From Rozella allomycis CSF55 (Eukaryota): a stretch of DNA of 48,766 bases. The notes under the pieces were generated by a model. That model did not search any database. It had not been told where the DNA came from and saw only the letters and a list, made by a program, of their open reading frames with translations. Shown here piece after piece: positions 7,475 to 38,290 of this stretch. Where the stretch lies: positions 1 to 48,766 of the forward strand of contig KE560785.1 in NCBI GenBank assembly GCA_000442015.1. Reading direction: 5' to 3'. Both the position numbers and the translations under genes were made by a program. The number at the start of each line of letters is the position of its first letter. The stretch's first letter is position 1.

Positions 7475-9684
7475 ATGGATGCGGCTTCCCGCACTGCTAG
7501 ATTTGACGTACAGCTCACAGAAAATAGATTCGAAGAGGTAAGAATAATTTAAACTAAAAATTTGCTATCCAAGTTACGAGCTGTAAAGAGAAAAGACTTT
7601 GAAGAAAAAAGCTTACGAGATCCTACGTATACACTAGTTGGAACATGCTTAGACAAGTGTCCAGAATATGAAAGACATGAAAGAGAAATACATTTAGATT
7701 TAAGCTCATTTGAAATGGTATTGAGAAGTATGCTTTTTTAGAAAAGATTCCGGGAACTGAAACCCATAATCAGAGTGGAGATTATCCAAGAATAGATCAT
7801 TTTAAAGCTGTCAAAAAATATCACAGACCTGCTGCGGGGAATGAACAGCCGTTACCAGAAGATGTGCGACCGTCAAAAGTCTTGCTTGTACCTGGCATCT
7901 ACTCATTTAATAATTAGGAAACTATGGATTATCTTGTTAAAGATGTATTAGATCGAAAAGATATATCGTTTAGTGCTGTTCACAATTTTATTCGGGACCG
8001 GACACGATCGATTCGACAAGATTTTACTCTTCAGAATATACGGGATGATTGTTGTGTTAGAATACATGAAAGGATTGCAAGATTTCATATTGTGTCAGGT
8101 TATTTACTTTGTGAAGAAGATCCAGCAGAATTTGATGCATTTCAGAATACAGAGCAGCTTCGGAAAGTTCTTCAATCTTTGCATGAGTTTTATACAGATG
8201 CAGCGAAAACTGCGGGTAGGGATAACTTGACTTTTGAAAATGAACCTGAATTTCGGTGTTATTATATTCTAACGCACTTGAAAGATACAGAAGTTTTCAG
8301 AAAAAGTCTTTCTTTTCATCCACTAGTATTTAAACACCCGTTAGTCCAGTTTGCATTAAGATGCTGCCTAGCGTTTCATTGTTCAAATTACGTTGAATTT
8401 TTCAGGTTGTTTCAAACAGCCCCGTTTTTAGCCTCTTGTCTTTTGCATTCTCATTTAAAAGATATTCGTTTATCAGCTTATAATATTATGAGCAGGGCTT
8501 ACCTTGGAAGTGAAGCTATTCCTGAAAAGTTTATAATGGAAACGCTCTGTTTTGAGGATAGGTTAGATCTAGAAATGTTTTGTGAGTTTGTTGGAGCTAA
8601 ATTGGAAAATGGAGTTTTGTTTTTTAATAGAGATGGGGAAATAGAGAATGATAAATATAAAAATCGTCGCTCATTTCTCATTGACTCTAAAAATTCGTTA
8701 CCTTTATCTGATGTTGTTAATGGAAACAGCAACAATGAATTGGTGGATTACGTTCCTCTCGTCAAAGAAACAAAAGTAGTCGAAATGAAAGATATTGATA
8801 TGGTTGACTTTTCGGAGGACTCACAACCGAATCAGGTAATGCCACTGAAACCCTTAAGACAAATCCAACCAAAAGATGAATTTGATATTGATGGATTTTC
8901 CACTCATATTCTTCATGAATTAGTTGACGATTTCTTCAATAATTTTTATATTAATTTAGTTTCCAAAGTTTATAATGACGAAATTTCTAAATTTAAAAAG
9001 GCCGCATTAGATTATACTTGTGTAGATTTATATAAACAAATAGAAAATGAAACAGTGTGTCAGTCATTGAAATCTATTATTCAAAATCAAATTAATGTTA
9101 GCAAGAAAAAAGAATTCGTTGATGCCTTCAGTATTGAAAGCGCAAGAAACTTTTTAAATCAAGAAATCACAAGTTATACGGCTTCATGTATTTTGGTCAT
9201 GTTGGCTGAAGAATTTATGGCTAAGACATATAAAGGCAAGTTTTTAACAAATTGGATATCTTTGTATAAAACAAAAAGGAAACAAAGAATCGAACGTGAA
9301 AAACGCCAGCAGCGAGAAACTCATATAAAAGATCAAGTTCGCGTAATTTCTCAATCCTCGCTTCCCCGACATTTTGTTGCAAATGATAATAGATTTTTTA
9401 CCCCAAAGAAAGCATCAAAAATTGAAACTGAACCACTACCAGAAGTTAACCGCAATACCCAAGTTAATCAAAAATCAGAACCTAATTTTGAATCATTTGT
9501 ATCACCTACGAAAAGTTCAAAGAGAAGGAAAAAAGAAGATGAAGCGACAAAAAATCATATTTCAATAAATGCAACGAATGGCGATGAAAGACCTGTTTCA
9601 GATAACGATACACTGTTTGACGCCATTAAGAAGGAAAGAGAAGAAAATGAGCAATTCGAGAAAATGCTTTTGTCTCTACAATAA
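7475..9684 (+). CDS. SAC3: SAC3/GANP family TREX-2 mRNA export scaffold
   Basis: LVGTCLDKCPEYER, AVKKYHRPAAG, FIRDRTRSIRQDFTLQ, ENEPEFRCYYIL; introns 7538-7564 (or 7573), 7718-7746 and 7888-7917. Confidence 0.9.
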
Positions 9685-13781: not shown

Positions 13782-15766
13782 ATGGATTTCTTATTGGCTC
13801 TTGAAGAAAGAGATCGAATTCAATCAGAACCGTTTGAATTGATTATTGAGTCATGTAATGCCCGTATAAAATTATCGTCTAGTTCAAAAACAATTCGCCA
13901 GGGGAAATGAATTGGAAAATAGAATCAATCTTTTGGAATGTATTTTGGAAGAGAGAGATGATGAAATTAGTAAATTGAAGCAAGATCTTAGTTCCGCATT
14001 CAAAAATGGGTAACAATCAGATTAATTGTAAAGTTTAGGGGAATTCAGTTGAGAAAAGAATTAAATGAGCTACAAGAAAAATATTCGATTTTGAATGAAG
14101 AAAGGCTGGAATTGTTCCAGCAACAACACCAAAGTACCCAACGTCTTTTATCCATGAATGATGAAATAAAGACTAAAGATTTGTTTGTCAAAGAGAAGGT
14201 TCAAGAGTAATCAAGTTAATGATTTTTTAAAAGAAATGATAGGCTTAAAAAGCAAATCGATGATTTAAACTATGATCATCGAATCTTAATACAAAGAAAT
14301 ACAGACAATGAGAAAACCATATTGCAATTGCGTGATGAACTAGTAATCATTAAAAATTACATTTAATTGACTACACTACAACTGGAGTTAATTAAGAGTG
14401 ATGAACGAATTCGATCCCTGTCGCAAGAGAATCAGTTACTTATTGATCGATGGCTAAATAAAATGAATGAAGAAGTGCAAACGATAAATCTTGCAAATGA
14501 AATTGCTGAAGAGTGAGTTTGCAATGGTTGTATAATTGTTAGGGTTAAAAGGAGGGCTCTAAAAATTGAAAACTCGGACAAGGATTTTGTACAGCTTAAA
14601 CGGGAAGATACTATTGATATGTAATAATCATAACGTTTTTATAAGAGTCCTATAAATTGTTCTGTGCCTACTACTCAATCACATGAATTCAGCCCTTTCG
14701 ACCATGAAATATCTTGCATTGCTCTTTCTAACGATAGTCAATACTTAGCGGCAGCGTCCTTCGAAAAGCAGTTAATTGTTTATAATCTCAATACAAGTAT
14801 TAACTTAGGAATTAAACTACTAGATGAACAATATATTAAGTTCAAAGGAGCGATCCAATCAATAACCGATGTGGAATTTTCACCCTTCGATGATTGTATT
14901 TTGGCTGCTTCAGAAGATCAAATGGCGAGAATATGGTCTTTAAAAGATGGTAGGTTAAAGGTATAAATATCTAAATGCCAAAATTAGTTGACGTTAACTG
15001 GACACTCGTCACGGGTTGGCGCTGCAAGGTTTATTGAAGGCGGAAATCGGATTGTAAGTTAGAATATAGCTTCAGCAAAGATAACTGGTAGTAATGATTG
15101 CACGATAAAACTCTGGGATTTGAAAAGAGGATATTGCTCCAGAACTTTTTATACACAATCATCATGCAACGACTTATGCCCCATATTCGGTTACGGGTAT
15201 CTAATATTCAACTTGATGATAGATTATCTTTTGCATCAGGTCATACTGACAATAATCTGAAATTTTGGGACTCAAGATCTTCGGAATGTGTAAAATCCAT
15301 GGACGATGTTCATTCTATGCCAATCGCTGGCGCTTTTGCATCCATCGGTATAAAAAATGACAATTATTAATAGACGGCAAGTATTTGCTAACAACCTCTA
15401 AAGATAACACGATCAAGCTTGTTGACCCACGAAAGTTTCAAGTCATTCACTCATTTTCACACGAAAGATATAATGTTAGCTTTAATCACGTGAAACCCGC
15501 TCTAAGGCAACTGTTTCATTTATGATTTACATGTAGCCCCGACAACTTGATTGCAGTTGCTGGTTCAAACAATGGAGCGATATTCTTTTGGGATGTATTA
15601 ACGGCGAAATCAATTGACTCTTTATCTTCACATACGTAAAGATATTTATTAAATGGAATTGAAAAGAAGTAGTTGCATTGGGGTACTATGGCCTAAGGAT
15701 TCCCAGTCAAGGCTGATTTCAGCAGAAAGACACCAAATCATAAAAATCTGGTCATCGACACATTAG
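13782..15766 (+). CDS. ATG16: ATG16L1-type autophagy protein (coiled coil plus WD40)
   Basis: Coiled coil LRDELTTLQLEL..ENQLLIDRWLNKMNEE; WD40 repeats (LTGHSSRV, GSNDCTIKLWDL, SGHTDNNLKFWD, SPDNLIAVAGS); 13 introns of 26-31 nt including one GC-AG and one probable GT-TG. Confidence 0.88.
14343..14369 (+). other. Probable GT-TG intron (27 nt) in ATG16
   Basis: cta|gtaatcattaaaaattacatttaattg|act aca cta caa ctg gag; contains an in-frame TAA; the first AG would give a 45-nt intron deleting TTLQLE. Confidence 0.6.
15507..15536 (+). other. GC-AG intron (30 nt) in ATG16
   Basis: ag|gcaactgtttcatttatgatttacatgtag|c ccc gac restores the WD40 SPD motif. Confidence 0.65.
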
Positions 15767-15834: not shown

Positions 15835-16556
15835 ATGAACTTTCTAGGCTTGAACAAGAACAAAACATTTAAACCCAAGAAGAACATCCCGGAAGGCACC
15901 AAGCAATATCAATTGAAAAAATACGCTGAAGCTACACTAGGATCAGGCAATTTAAGACTTGCTGTTACACTGCCTGAAGGAGAGGATTTGAATGAATGGC
16001 TTGCTGTAAACACCGTAGACTTTTTTAATCAAATTAACATGCTTTACGGAACTATTACGGAGTTTTGCACTCCTTCAGAATGTCCTGTAATGAGCGCTGG
16101 CCCAAAGTAACGTTAATGCCAAATTTTTATTGAGATATGAATATCATTGGTGCGATGGTGTTACCTATAAGAAGCCAGTAAAGCTGAGCGCACCTGAATA
16201 TATTGATTGCTTGATGACATGGACCCAACAACAATTAGACAATGAAGCTATTTTTCCCTCAAAAATAGGTACAACATAACCATAGTTTTTATTAGGTAAC
16301 CAAATGCTGGAATTATCATACAGGTGTCCCATTTCCTAAGAATTTTGAGTCAGCGATAAAGAACATATTCAAAAGATTATTCAGAGTGTACGCCCATATT
16401 TATCATTCTCATTTTCCTAAAATAGTTAGTTTAGGAGAAGAAGCACACTTGAACACGAGTTTCAAGCACTTTATCTTTTTTGTTCAAGAATTTGATTTGA
16501 TTGACAAGAAAGAATTAGCACCGCTAACAGAGCTCATTAATACATTGGCCAATTAA
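15835..16556 (+). CDS. MOB1: MOB kinase activator 1
   Basis: [88 protein letters not shown]; introns of 28 nt and 55 nt (27+28). Confidence 0.97.
16269..16323 (+). other. Tandem twin intron (27 nt + 28 nt) with zero-length exon, candidate recursive splice site
   Basis: gtacaacataaccatagtttttattAG|GTaaccaaatgctggaattatcatacag; removing all 55 nt gives the conserved SKIGVPF. Confidence 0.65.
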
Positions 16557-18087: not shown

Positions 18088-21452
<3,365 letters not shown>

Positions 21453-34483: not shown

Positions 34484-37400
34484 TTAATTTTCAATTTCAT
34501 TCTTTGGAAGAGATTTTGATTTTTCATAAACAAAAGATCCAAGAGATTCCAAATTCACAACAAAATCGCCTTCAGTTTGAGAAACAAGACGATTAGTTTC
34601 AAAAGTAGTTTCATTTTTGTTTAAAACAAGATTTGTAGGACGAGAGAATAATTGATCATTTAAGATTGAAAATGGTTTCCATTGTTGAAAGATTGATTGT
34701 CTACCAAAAATGTATAAACCAAGTCTAGCTCTAGAAAGAGCAACAGTTAATCTCTTCAAATCTTTCAAATGCCCAACAGATTTAGTTTTAACAAGAGAAA
34801 GCAAAATATCTAAATGAAATTGAATAGATTGAATTACAGTCGTTTTGTTTACCTTGGAATTTATCAATTGTAGAAACATGGGGAATACCAAAATAGTTTG
34901 TCCAACCGCATCGTTGTTTTAAAACATCTTTGATTAATTCTTTCTGACCCAAATAGCTTGTGAGAATAGTAATTTTATCTTTTGGATAGCCAATCAGTCT
35001 CATGTATTGATAAACAGCAACAATGTATTCAGCTTCACCCAAATTCTGTATAAAGTGTGGAATTGGCTCAGTTTCACCTTTCCCTTGATAATCTTCAACA
35101 TTAATAAATTGATATTCAAATGCAAATCTTTATTAAATGAAATATAATGGAAATACCCTGGATTAGCTAGTGTAAATAACCCTTGATTAACATGATTCAA
35201 ATTTAAGAGATTATTGTATCTCCAATTGAATAGATTGGCTATTGAAGGACGACATCTTCCTTGTGAGTTTAATTGAATAAATGGAACACCAAGACGAATC
35301 AAACGATAAAAGAGAGACAATTCCATGTTAGAAAATGATTGTAATCCTCTGTGACGGATAATTGGAGGTAATTGATTATGATCTCCAATCAGAATTATTC
35401 TCTTTAAATGATTTCTATTCATATCATCTTTATCTTGTAATACTAGGGGAATGAATGATTCAATCTCTGAAACTTGTCCTGCTTCTTCTATTATCACTGA
35501 ATCATATTTAAATCCATATTTTATCAATTCTTGTCTCTTCAAACTAGCAAATGTACATGTCATGGCTATAATTCTTGCCTCTTTCATCAACAGATAATTG
35601 TTTCTATCATATTTAGTCTTTAATGTTTCAAATGGCATCAAATGTTCCAAATCATTAAACTTTCTTTCAATATAATTTATGCAACTATTCAAGGTGTGAA
35701 TAGAATGAGTAAAAGTAGTAGTAGAAGTAGAAGTAATTGCTTCTTCGCTTGCTTCCCTTGAAGTATTGAAATAATTCTTGAATGGAAAGATTGCTTCAAC
35801 ATCTTCATTTCCATCTTTAATCTTTTCATTAAACTTAATAATCAAAGGTTTAATATAATAAAGATAGAAATAAACAGCAGTCTCACAAGTAAACCCATGA
35901 TCACCTGGAATAGAAAGGGATTTAGCCAATTCATCAACAAACTTTAACAATTCATTCTTTTTATTCATAAAATAATCAACTCTTCCCAACTGTGAATATT
36001 TCTCTTCTATTTTCAATTCATCTTGTCCAGATCCCAATCTCAACAAATGTCTCTCCAAAACATCCTTTTCCGATATCTTTTTAAACAATGAATCCAACGC
36101 TTGATTTGAATGCGTTAATACTACAATCTTTTGGTTTGGATAATTCTTGTACAAATTATAAATCATTTGAACACAAACATCTGTCTTTCCTGTTCCTGGT
36201 GGCCCAACTATCAACGTCATCCCCTTGTTCATTCCTGACCTTATCGCCTCCACTTGATTCTCTGTAAATCTAATTTCATTTCTCGGTTTAAAATCTTCTC
36301 TAATCAACCTTTCTTCATTATACGCAATCGCTTCAATCTCTTTCTCTTTAAAATTCAAAATATATCCCTTCTTTCCTTCACACTCTTCTTCCTTTGAATG
36401 GATTGATACTTTTTCATTCTTAAAACTTTCAATCAAATGAGATTCATCAACAAATGTATCACAAAAGTTCAATAACCCTTCTTCTTTTATCTTTACTGAA
36501 TTTGGATCCCCATAACCCAAAATAATATCTCTGCTCCATTCTGGTAACTCAATATCTTTCTTCATCAACTCTCTTATACTACTCAACGCTCCCTTATAGT
36601 TATTATTCCTGGGCTTTCTTCTCATCACCAAATTAAACATTGAATACTCTCCATCTCTTCCATTCTTCAAATCATTCTACATCATTTTAATAAAACCCTC
36701 TTACGTCGTACTGATTAACATCCAAATAAACCTTCACAGTCTTGTAGCCTTCAATCTTTTCTTCACTCTCATCTTCAGCCTTTTCATACACTTCACATCC
36801 TCTAATCATCGTTATCCCATAATGATCCTTGAATGACTTATCTTTACTATACGCCGTATTAGTCTCGGGAGTTGCTTGAATAGAAAGCAACAACAACACC
36901 TCGTTCTGTCTAATACTCTCCCACTCTCTTCTTAATGTATCATTCAACATCGACACTGAATAAGAAACCTCGGCACACACAAAGCCTGGCTTACTCTCAC
37001 CCACTCTTGCCTTGCCTACATCCATAATCTTAAACGAATGAATAGGCAATGCCATTCTGCTCCATCCAGTAAACTCTGTATATGCACTAGTTGTACAAGT
37101 TGGTCTCATCCTCGACACAACATCCTCAACATCCATTCTCACATCATACAACGAATGCATTCTAAACAAATGAAAATTTCTCATCAAATAGTCATGAAAA
37201 CTCAAATACTGCAACGTCAATTTAGGCACAGGAAGTATCTCATCTCCAGTATCAATAGTCACTTGATCATTAAACAATATCTCTTCATCTGGATACAAAG
37301 ACAAATCATTAATATTCTCCATCTGCGACAATTTCCTTTCGTATCTTTGAACAATCACCTCAACTAGTATCTCTCTCTCAACTTTCACATCTCCAAATTC

Positions 37401-38290
37401 AGTTCTTATCCCCACANNNNNNNNNNNNNNNNNNNNNNNNNNNNNNNNNNNNNNNNNNNNNNNNNNNNNNNTCTTCAAAATAAAACTGCAAATTATCTCT
37501 CTCCCTCACCTCGCCAATATTGCTCAATGCCAAATCTTCCAACTCTTCCTTAAACTTTGAAAACGCCAACTTTTGAAGCTCAACAACCTTTCTCGTTTCC
37601 CTCTCATTCTGCTCCTCCTCACTATACCCCTCCCCACTATACTCATCAACAGGAAACCAAACATAAAAACACAGCGTCGCATGCAACTGTCTCAACAACC
37701 TATATCCCCACCAATAACCACTTACATCGCTTCAGGCACCCCAAACACTGGCGACATCTTGACCCGCACACAAAACTGCAAATCATCCACCAACGCTCTC
37801 ACATACTTGCGAGTAGGCAGCTGACTCAACAAATCATTGAACAACACAATCACATGCTCAACAAACGGCAGCCACTCTATCCCCTCAATCTCACTTCCAA
37901 TCACCCCATACACCCGCTCACAAAGCACCTTCAACACATCACACCGCTCATCCGCCTCCTTGACACTTTTATTATACCGCTTCCTAGCACCACTAGCCTC
38001 AAGCTCAAGCTCCAACCTTCTGCCACTCAAATGTCGCCAAATGCCAACAGAACACATCTTCAAAAGATCAGGCCGGATCTCCTCATTGTCAATTTTGCCA
38101 AAACAATGGGCTAGAAACTTTACTAGCATCACACTCTGCCCCAAATCAGTCGGTGATATCAACTGCTTCATAGTGCTCTTCAAAAGAATCGGCAAAAGTG
38201 TGTCGTCTTGGTACAAGTAGTAATCTTCTATTTGTTTATGCTATTTTAGTGGAGAAAAGGCGTTACTAGACTGACACTCTTCGTTTTCAT
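34484..38290 (-). CDS. AQR: Aquarius/IBP160/Cwf11 intron-binding spliceosomal helicase
   Basis: [108 protein letters not shown]; at least five introns of 26-29 nt; N-gap 37416-37471. Confidence 0.93.

Follow-up and report, generated by a model that had tools for sequence, protein, structure and literature searches.

The MOB1 gene of Rozella allomycis CSF55 is interrupted within its conserved domain by 55 nucleotides (nt) that begin with GTACAA and end with ACAG, and the question raised by this locus is whether these nucleotides leave the transcript as a single long intron or as two introns of ordinary size that meet without any exon base between them. The window in which we addressed this question is the whole of contig KE560785.1 of assembly GCA_000442015.1, i.e., 48,766 nt, which has a G+C content of ~35% and uses the standard stop codons (judged from its long open frames, table 11). 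An initial annotation of the same DNA had described the twin arrangement and had proposed that it was forced by a maximum spliceable length. Here we describe the gene and its interruption, compare the interruption with the other introns of the contig and with relatives of MOB1 elsewhere, and weigh the ways in which the 55 nt may be removed.

Structure and Identity of the MOB1 Gene

The annotated MOB1 protein (P0242) matched the Mob1/phocein profile (PF03637) over positions 1–170 of 170 with an E-value of 5.7e-84 and 280.7 bits (cut-off 27), and threading it on the window gave a single solution, with introns of 28 and 55 nt (Table 1). The translations of the three exons jointly span the profile with no part of the domain missing; thus, the 55 nt interrupt the domain and replace none of it. 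The spliced translation is identical to EPZ35666.1, a protein of 212 amino acids deposited as "MOB kinase activator-like protein [Rozella allomycis CSF55]" and a member of the 90%-identity cluster to which the best MOB1 hit belongs. A second gene of the contig, that for Aquarius, has an exon of 558 codons whose translation shares 99% identity with an R. allomycis CSF55 protein, the next match being at 42–48%. The threading result also means that the public annotation already excises the 55 nt, and what is new relative to the EPZ35666.1 record is the reading of these 55 nt as two introns.

Table 1. Positions, in window coordinates, of the features discussed in the text.
Feature	Positions	Strand	Length (nt)	Remarks
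MOB1 gene	15835–16556	+		Three exons; ATG at 15835, TAA stop at 16554–16556
MOB1 exon 1	15835–16106	+		From ATG to the split Lys91 codon; translation, Pfam Mob1_phocein profile positions 1–60, threading of P0242
MOB1 intron 1	16107–16134	+	28	GTAACG..TTGAG; sole GT..AG solution on threading of P0242
MOB1 exon 2	16135–16268	+		Ends in ...AAAATAG, i.e., with the first base of the Gly136 codon; Pfam profile positions 61–102
MOB1 interruption	16269–16323	+	55	GTACAA...ACAG
First unit of the interruption	16269–16295	+	27	GTACAA..ATTAG; its AG at +27 is the first AG at least 24 nt past the donor
Second unit of the interruption	16296–16323	+	28	GTAACC..ATACAG; no inner AG before its end
MOB1 exon 3	16324–16556	+		Includes the TAA stop; Pfam profile positions 105–170; matches the end of P0242 exactly
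False intron modelled in MOB1 exon 3	16326–16353	+	28	Product of a parser tuned to 24–31-nt introns
SAC3 gene, putative long intron	7538–7588	+	36 or 51	Gene model
ATG16/WD40 gene	13782–15640	+		Models P0250 and P0251 disagree
ATG16 gene, long intron	14343–14387 or 14343–14396	+	45 or 54	Within one ATG16 domain match; the 54-nt version is the annotated one
Direct repeat in the helicase gene	18212–18306		46	Copies 98% identical, spacing 49; single N at 18260
MeaB-type GTPase gene, long intron	21733–21682	-	52	Threading of annotated P0253 and homologue alignment
MeaB-type GTPase gene, conserved segment	22374–22258	-		Region of the 80-nt stretch skipped by P0253
Aquarius gene	34484–38290	-		Modelled introns of 25–29 nt only
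Run of N in the Aquarius gene	37417–37471		55	

Anatomy of the 55-nt Interruption

The interruption splits the codon for Gly136 after its first base. It divides exactly as the initial annotation had it, i.e., into units of 27 and 28 nt that adjoin as ...TTAG/GTAACC... at 16295/16296 (the slash marks the junction) with zero exon bases between them, and both units start with GTA and end with YAG. The description of both units as standard in size also held, given that 84 introns of the contig measure 24–31 nt (see below). When position-weight scores of the two units were ranked against the leave-one-out scores of the contig's introns, the first unit fell at the 36th percentile and the second at the 65th, on a score that was built from the 84 introns and discriminates modestly (95th percentile of decoys 2.0, median of true introns 1.6).

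Excision in silico of all 55 nt together with the 28-nt intron 1 gave an open frame of 212 codons. Excision of the first unit alone caused a frameshift and excision of the second unit alone left two in-frame stops, in agreement with the earlier statement that loss of one half leaves a stop codon or a frameshift. Once the first unit had been taken out, the junction read ATAG/GTAACC, which bears out in silico the claim that a good donor is regenerated, GTAA being the donor consensus of the contig. The interruption thus has in silico the marks of a zero-nucleotide exon or ratchet point, i.e., an acceptor and a donor juxtaposed as AG/GT inside an intervening sequence and a 5' splice site that is regenerated. 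Each unit is a complete GT..AG intron and is still complete after the other has been removed. Set against an ordinary single U2-type intron of this genome, the 55 nt have fitting GT..AG ends, and their length lies outside the 24–31-nt bulk but near the 52-nt and 45/54-nt introns without internal sites that are described below. A search of one metatranscriptome run at 85% likeness returned four short fragments, which were <90% alike and came from MOB1 of other organisms; none of the four spans the 55-nt site.

Intron Lengths and Signals on the Contig

Gene models were produced with a dynamic-programming exon/intron parser and then curated, with models antisense to Pfam-supported genes being dropped, and GT..AG introns of 24–31 nt were collected from the multi-intron models. 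The curated set comprised 84 introns of 24 nt (n = 2), 26 nt (n = 21), 27 nt (n = 18), 28 nt (n = 21), 29 nt (n = 13), 30 nt (n = 6) and 31 nt (n = 3), so that the mode for this one contig is 26–28 nt; it should be noted that these introns are predicted and that the models favour 24–31 nt by construction. An unbiased count of the GTA..AG candidates that join open reading frames (ORFs) had an equally sharp peak at 26–29 nt above a flat background. A second modelling round with a stronger penalty on long introns yielded 96 introns in supported models, 89 of which were 25–31 nt long; its model of MOB1 was wrong, conserved residues having been deleted.

The signals common to the 84 introns are minimal. 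They consist of GTA at the start (80/84), A at position 4 (54/84), A at -4 (51/84) and T at -3 (52/84), followed by AG. A search of the same introns for a branch-site motif found TrAy in 39 of the 84 vs. 38 expected from shuffles and mild enrichment of TGAT and ATGAT, and gave nothing usable.

Two further observations concern gene modelling on this contig. The parser tuned to 24–31-nt introns mis-models MOB1 by taking out the 27-nt first unit together with a false 28-nt intron in exon 3 (Table 1), and this locus warns that gene finders set up for tiny introns get such cases wrong. The contig also carries the gene for Aquarius, the spliceosomal intron-binding helicase, which has a run of 55 N inside it.

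Longer Introns on the Same Contig

Outside MOB1, the longer introns of the contig are one of 52 nt in a MeaB-type GTPase gene, one of 45 or 54 nt in the ATG16 gene and a putative one of 36 or 51 nt in the SAC3 gene (Table 1). Together with the 55-nt interruption, they possibly form a second intron length class near twice the mode.

The MeaB intron is placed by the alignment of its junction, ...YYFLTV/SEAKEK..., which in a MAFFT alignment with 15 homologues was gap-free in 12, had a 2-residue gap in 1 and was unaligned at this point in 2. The exon downstream codes for the region of the conserved C-terminal motif L-[ST]-P-x-x-A-A. A 64-nt reading of this intron was rejected, as it loses four residues relative to the homologues while the 52-nt version aligns without a gap. 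For ATG16, residues 4–190 of the annotated protein (P0250) match profile positions 3–200 as one contiguous hit, with the intron junction at residues 159/160. In the stretch that starts at 14343, read-through meets a stop, a second GT is absent and the first AG comes no earlier than nt 45; the intron must therefore be at least 45 nt long. Pfam searches with single small exons did not confirm those that follow the long introns of MeaB and ATG16, and the full annotated proteins and the alignment were used instead.

Neither the MeaB nor the ATG16 long intron contains an AG/GT or any AG before nt 45, and the SAC3 candidate is also without AG/GT. Lacking AG/GT, the MeaB and ATG16 introns must each leave in one piece, which makes the removal of 55 nt in one step feasible. 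The proposal that a maximum spliceable length forces recursive splicing at MOB1 is therefore contradicted by these two introns, both of which are without an internal AG/GT.

Several long introns of the first-round models were discarded. The one of 178 nt conceals an exon between two 27-nt introns, that of 43 nt at 15197 is a 26-nt intron read in another frame (that of P0250), and those of 110–197 nt have non-GTA donors or bridge separate genes. The one of 60 nt at 18313 falls in a duplicated stretch of 46 nt beside an N. This stretch belongs to a direct repeat in the last-exon region of a helicase gene, which we take from its motifs to be of the HELQ/POLQ type; the two copies flank a single N (Table 1), and the repeat looks like an artefact of an assembly join; it gave rise to the false 60-nt intron.

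The public gene models of this region were used only where homology backs them. The public MeaB model (P0253) skips an 80-nt stretch that codes for the conserved residues ...AVDPSS..GG.ILGDK (Pfam MeaB profile from position 65 onward), and no GT..AG intron was found that joins the upstream KVAVL codons in frame to the AVDPSS segment; the gene may be decaying, an intron here may be non-canonical, or the anomaly may stem from a frameshift or an error of assembly. For the ATG16/WD40 gene, P0250, which derives from this contig, and P0251, which derives from another assembly, disagree, and the 51- and 102-nt introns of P0250 are coding in P0251. Both stretches are in frame and free of stops. Judged from the conserved or in-frame coding sequence that would be lost, the annotated introns of 19, 36, 39, 51 and 102 nt in P0250 and of 80, 37 and 43 nt in P0253 are doubtful, and the annotated intron lengths for R. 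allomycis are not to be taken at face value.

Choice of the 3' Splice Site

When AGs that end less than 24 nt from the donor are disregarded, 77 of the 84 short introns use the first AG available as the 3' splice site, and the other seven pass over an AG at +24 or +25. None of the 84 has an AG within it that ends at nt 26 or beyond. In the three other long introns, i.e., those of MeaB, ATG16 and SAC3, no AG ends anywhere from nt 6 to nt 35, and these introns look long for want of an early AG; by a rough estimate, such a lack is fairly frequent by chance (~0.66 for each intron). In the MeaB intron the in-frame 3' site at +52 is not the first AG, which lies at +45. Given this skipped AG and those skipped in 7 of the 84 short introns, the first-AG rule is not absolute.

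Unlike the other long introns, the MOB1 interruption has an AG at the modal distance of +27, with T at -3. If the first-AG rule applies, the first unit is cut at +27, and the second unit would then be an obligatory intron, as the transcript is otherwise out of frame.

Expectation for the Twin Structure by Chance

We simulated 200,000 GTA..AG introns of 55 nt under a first-order model of the contig's introns. An AG/GT giving two parts of 24–31 nt was present in 1.4% of them, an AG/GTA split in 0.42%, and an AG/GTA split with both parts of 26–29 nt in 0.21%; all three figures are post hoc and refer to a single locus that was picked by a reader scanning many windows.

Among the ORF-joining GT..AG candidates of 48–62 nt in the window, eight split at AG/GT into two parts of 24–31 nt. 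MOB1 alone of the eight has GTA at the start of both parts and a stop within three codons on read-through, the other seven being coding sequence or lacking a nearby stop on read-through. As a rough guess, about one chance case would be expected per genome if a genome has 100–200 introns of 48–62 nt, a number that is itself guessed. Pure coincidence is an unlikely source of the twin structure, yet the locus is a single one and was chosen after the fact.

Age and Origin of the Intron Position

Scanning metagenome contigs with MOB1 exon 1 returned 80 MOB1 loci. Most of them are uninterrupted and transcript-like, including the closest, which is ~86% identical over the protein. Four relatives that are interrupted near Gly136 were inspected, and in each of them a GT..AG intron (~37, 41, 73 and 87 nt long) splits the same Gly codon behind its first base. 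The sharing of this position by all four interrupted relatives indicates that the position of the intron is old.

The simplest history is that an ancestral longer intron gained internal sites in Rozella, as opposed to the insertion of a second intron beside the first, the data being compatible with either. A recent duplication or an introner-like origin was rejected, as the two units aligned to each other with a score of 13 and to other introns with best scores of 18 and 17, at a background median of 18.

Removal of the 55 nt in One Reaction or Two

On the evidence of its anatomy, we put at an even chance that the interruption is a composite of two standard-size units, joined at AG/GT around a zero-nucleotide exon, that would be excised in two separate reactions. 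The main grounds for this preference are the first-AG rule and the finding that the 28 nt remaining after a cut at +27 open with GTAA at the junction and have no AG before their end. Most likely, each unit would be recognised separately by intron definition, with the donor GTACAA pairing with the first suitably spaced AG, at +27, and the adjoining donor GTAACC pairing with the sole AG downstream, at +55. The order of the two excisions would be free on paper, because the removal of either unit leaves the other complete. The structure would probably have come from new internal splice sites in an older, longer intron at an ancient position, with no hard length ceiling being involved.

A single, unusually long intron of 55 nt that is spliced in one reaction from 16269 to 16323, with the central AG/GTA being coincidental or a rarely used cryptic site, is a serious possibility, although we would not call it probable. 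The contig provides one-piece introns of similar length (52 nt in MeaB, 45 or 54 nt in ATG16), the protein of the public annotation is the product of excising all 55 nt, and the skipping of AGs in the MeaB intron and in 7 of the 84 short introns is consistent with one-step removal. A branch site could also be supplied by the TAAC at the second unit's start, 23 nt before the final AG with no AG between, and the post hoc selection of the locus weighs in the same direction, one chance case per genome being plausible on our rough guess of intron numbers. For removal in one step, however, the spliceosome would have to pass over the AG at +27, which lies at the modal distance and has the customary T at -3, whereas no short intron of the contig encloses an AG that ends at nt 26 or beyond and none of the other three long introns has an AG ending at nt 6–35. 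The exact 27 + 28 nt structure with GTA at both starts also has a probability of 0.2–0.4% by the post hoc simulation. If both pathways are used, partial splicing would lead to a premature stop and, through RNA decay, to a regulated or leaky switch on MOB1 output. Either partial product is frameshifted or has in-frame stops, as such a switch would require, and a composite intervening sequence of Lipomyces starkeyi leaves in one reaction or two (PMC7138796); we nevertheless regard a switch as improbable, as the sequence has no regulatory hint, MOB1 is a conserved housekeeping-type gene and the case is a single one. Least of all would we expect some of the 55 nt to be absent from the real genome. 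The contig does have N runs, one N being flanked by the 46-nt direct repeat, but the interruption itself is without a nearby N or repeat, the frame is restored exactly across its boundaries, which lie at an intron position that other organisms share, and both of its units have proper intron ends.

A broader idea, which we consider unlikely, is that the Rozella spliceosome has a length ruler of ~26–29 nt, and that introns that could not shrink persist either by lacking an early AG or by evolving an internal AG/GT that turns them into two units of ruler length. Under this idea, the introns of 52, 45 or 54, and 36 or 51 nt suggest a second length class of about twice the modal length. If it were true, no recursively spliced pair of introns smaller than that of MOB1 (27 + 28 nt, at an ancient position) would be known.

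If the two units are indeed spliced separately, the locus would offer recursive splicing a minimal substrate of natural origin, in which two modal-size introns adjoin without an exon. Such a substrate could help to address how length is measured by a spliceosome adapted to introns of ~27 nt and how this spliceosome reuses a junction at once; it would also indicate that composite introns can form through new sites in an old intron, in a genome under strong intron-shrinking pressure. As one ordinary 55-nt intron, the interruption would be of little interest.

Comparison with Known Systems

Ultra-short introns with GTA..AG signals are known from ciliates (Paramecium, Stentor), Dicyema and myxobolid myxozoans (PMC13644364, PMC6543705), which resemble Rozella in having a narrow length peak below 30 nt and minimal GTA ... 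AG signals. Rozella represents another lineage, that of an early-diverging fungal parasite, and abutting intron pairs were not found in the available text of these two reports. For Rozella itself, an intron density of 2.5 per kb has been given (PMC8476143), and two introns of ~30 nt in S23 are mentioned in passing (PMC6349667). A literature search, which covered few subscription papers and did not include the R. allomycis genome paper, found no report of abutting, tandem or recursive introns in Rozella, Cryptomycota, ciliates or organisms with tiny introns.

Recursive splicing at juxtaposed acceptor and donor sites is established in very long animal introns (PMC8605326). The ratchet points of Drosophila and the recursive exons of vertebrates share with MOB1 the AG/GT and a 5' splice site that is regenerated after step one. 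In these animals, however, recursive splicing subdivides very long introns, while the whole MOB1 interruption is 55 nt long, so length cannot be the cause here.

In a stwintron, which is a fungal intron of composite make-up, a splice element of the external intron is interrupted by an internal one, and the two are excised through consecutive standard U2 reactions (PMC5639578). In this strict sense the MOB1 pair is not a stwintron: each unit has splice signals that the other leaves uninterrupted, and either might be the first to leave. Its likeness to the stwintrons of filamentous fungi and Lipomyces lies in being a composite fungal intervening sequence, for which one proposed origin is new sites inside an existing intron (PMC5639578, PMC7138796). 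In Lipomyces, an intron already present acquired new splice sites, and the smallest intron possible is the one that the spliceosome selects first (PMC7138796).

A close likeness in arrangement is found in BOT1 of Cryptococcus neoformans, in which spliceosome profiling resolved the annotated 375-nt intron into two, of 210 and 165 nt, that enclose a zero-nucleotide exon (bioRxiv 10.1101/224170). As in MOB1, an interruption annotated as single lies in an essential-type gene of a fungus, with acceptor and donor juxtaposed and no exon base between them. The BOT1 units, of 210 and 165 nt, were proven by junctions, branches and intermediates, in contrast to the MOB1 units, which are of modal size at 27 and 28 nt and are known from sequence alone. 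If real, the MOB1 pair would thus be, at best, a miniature version of a phenomenon that has already been shown in fungi.
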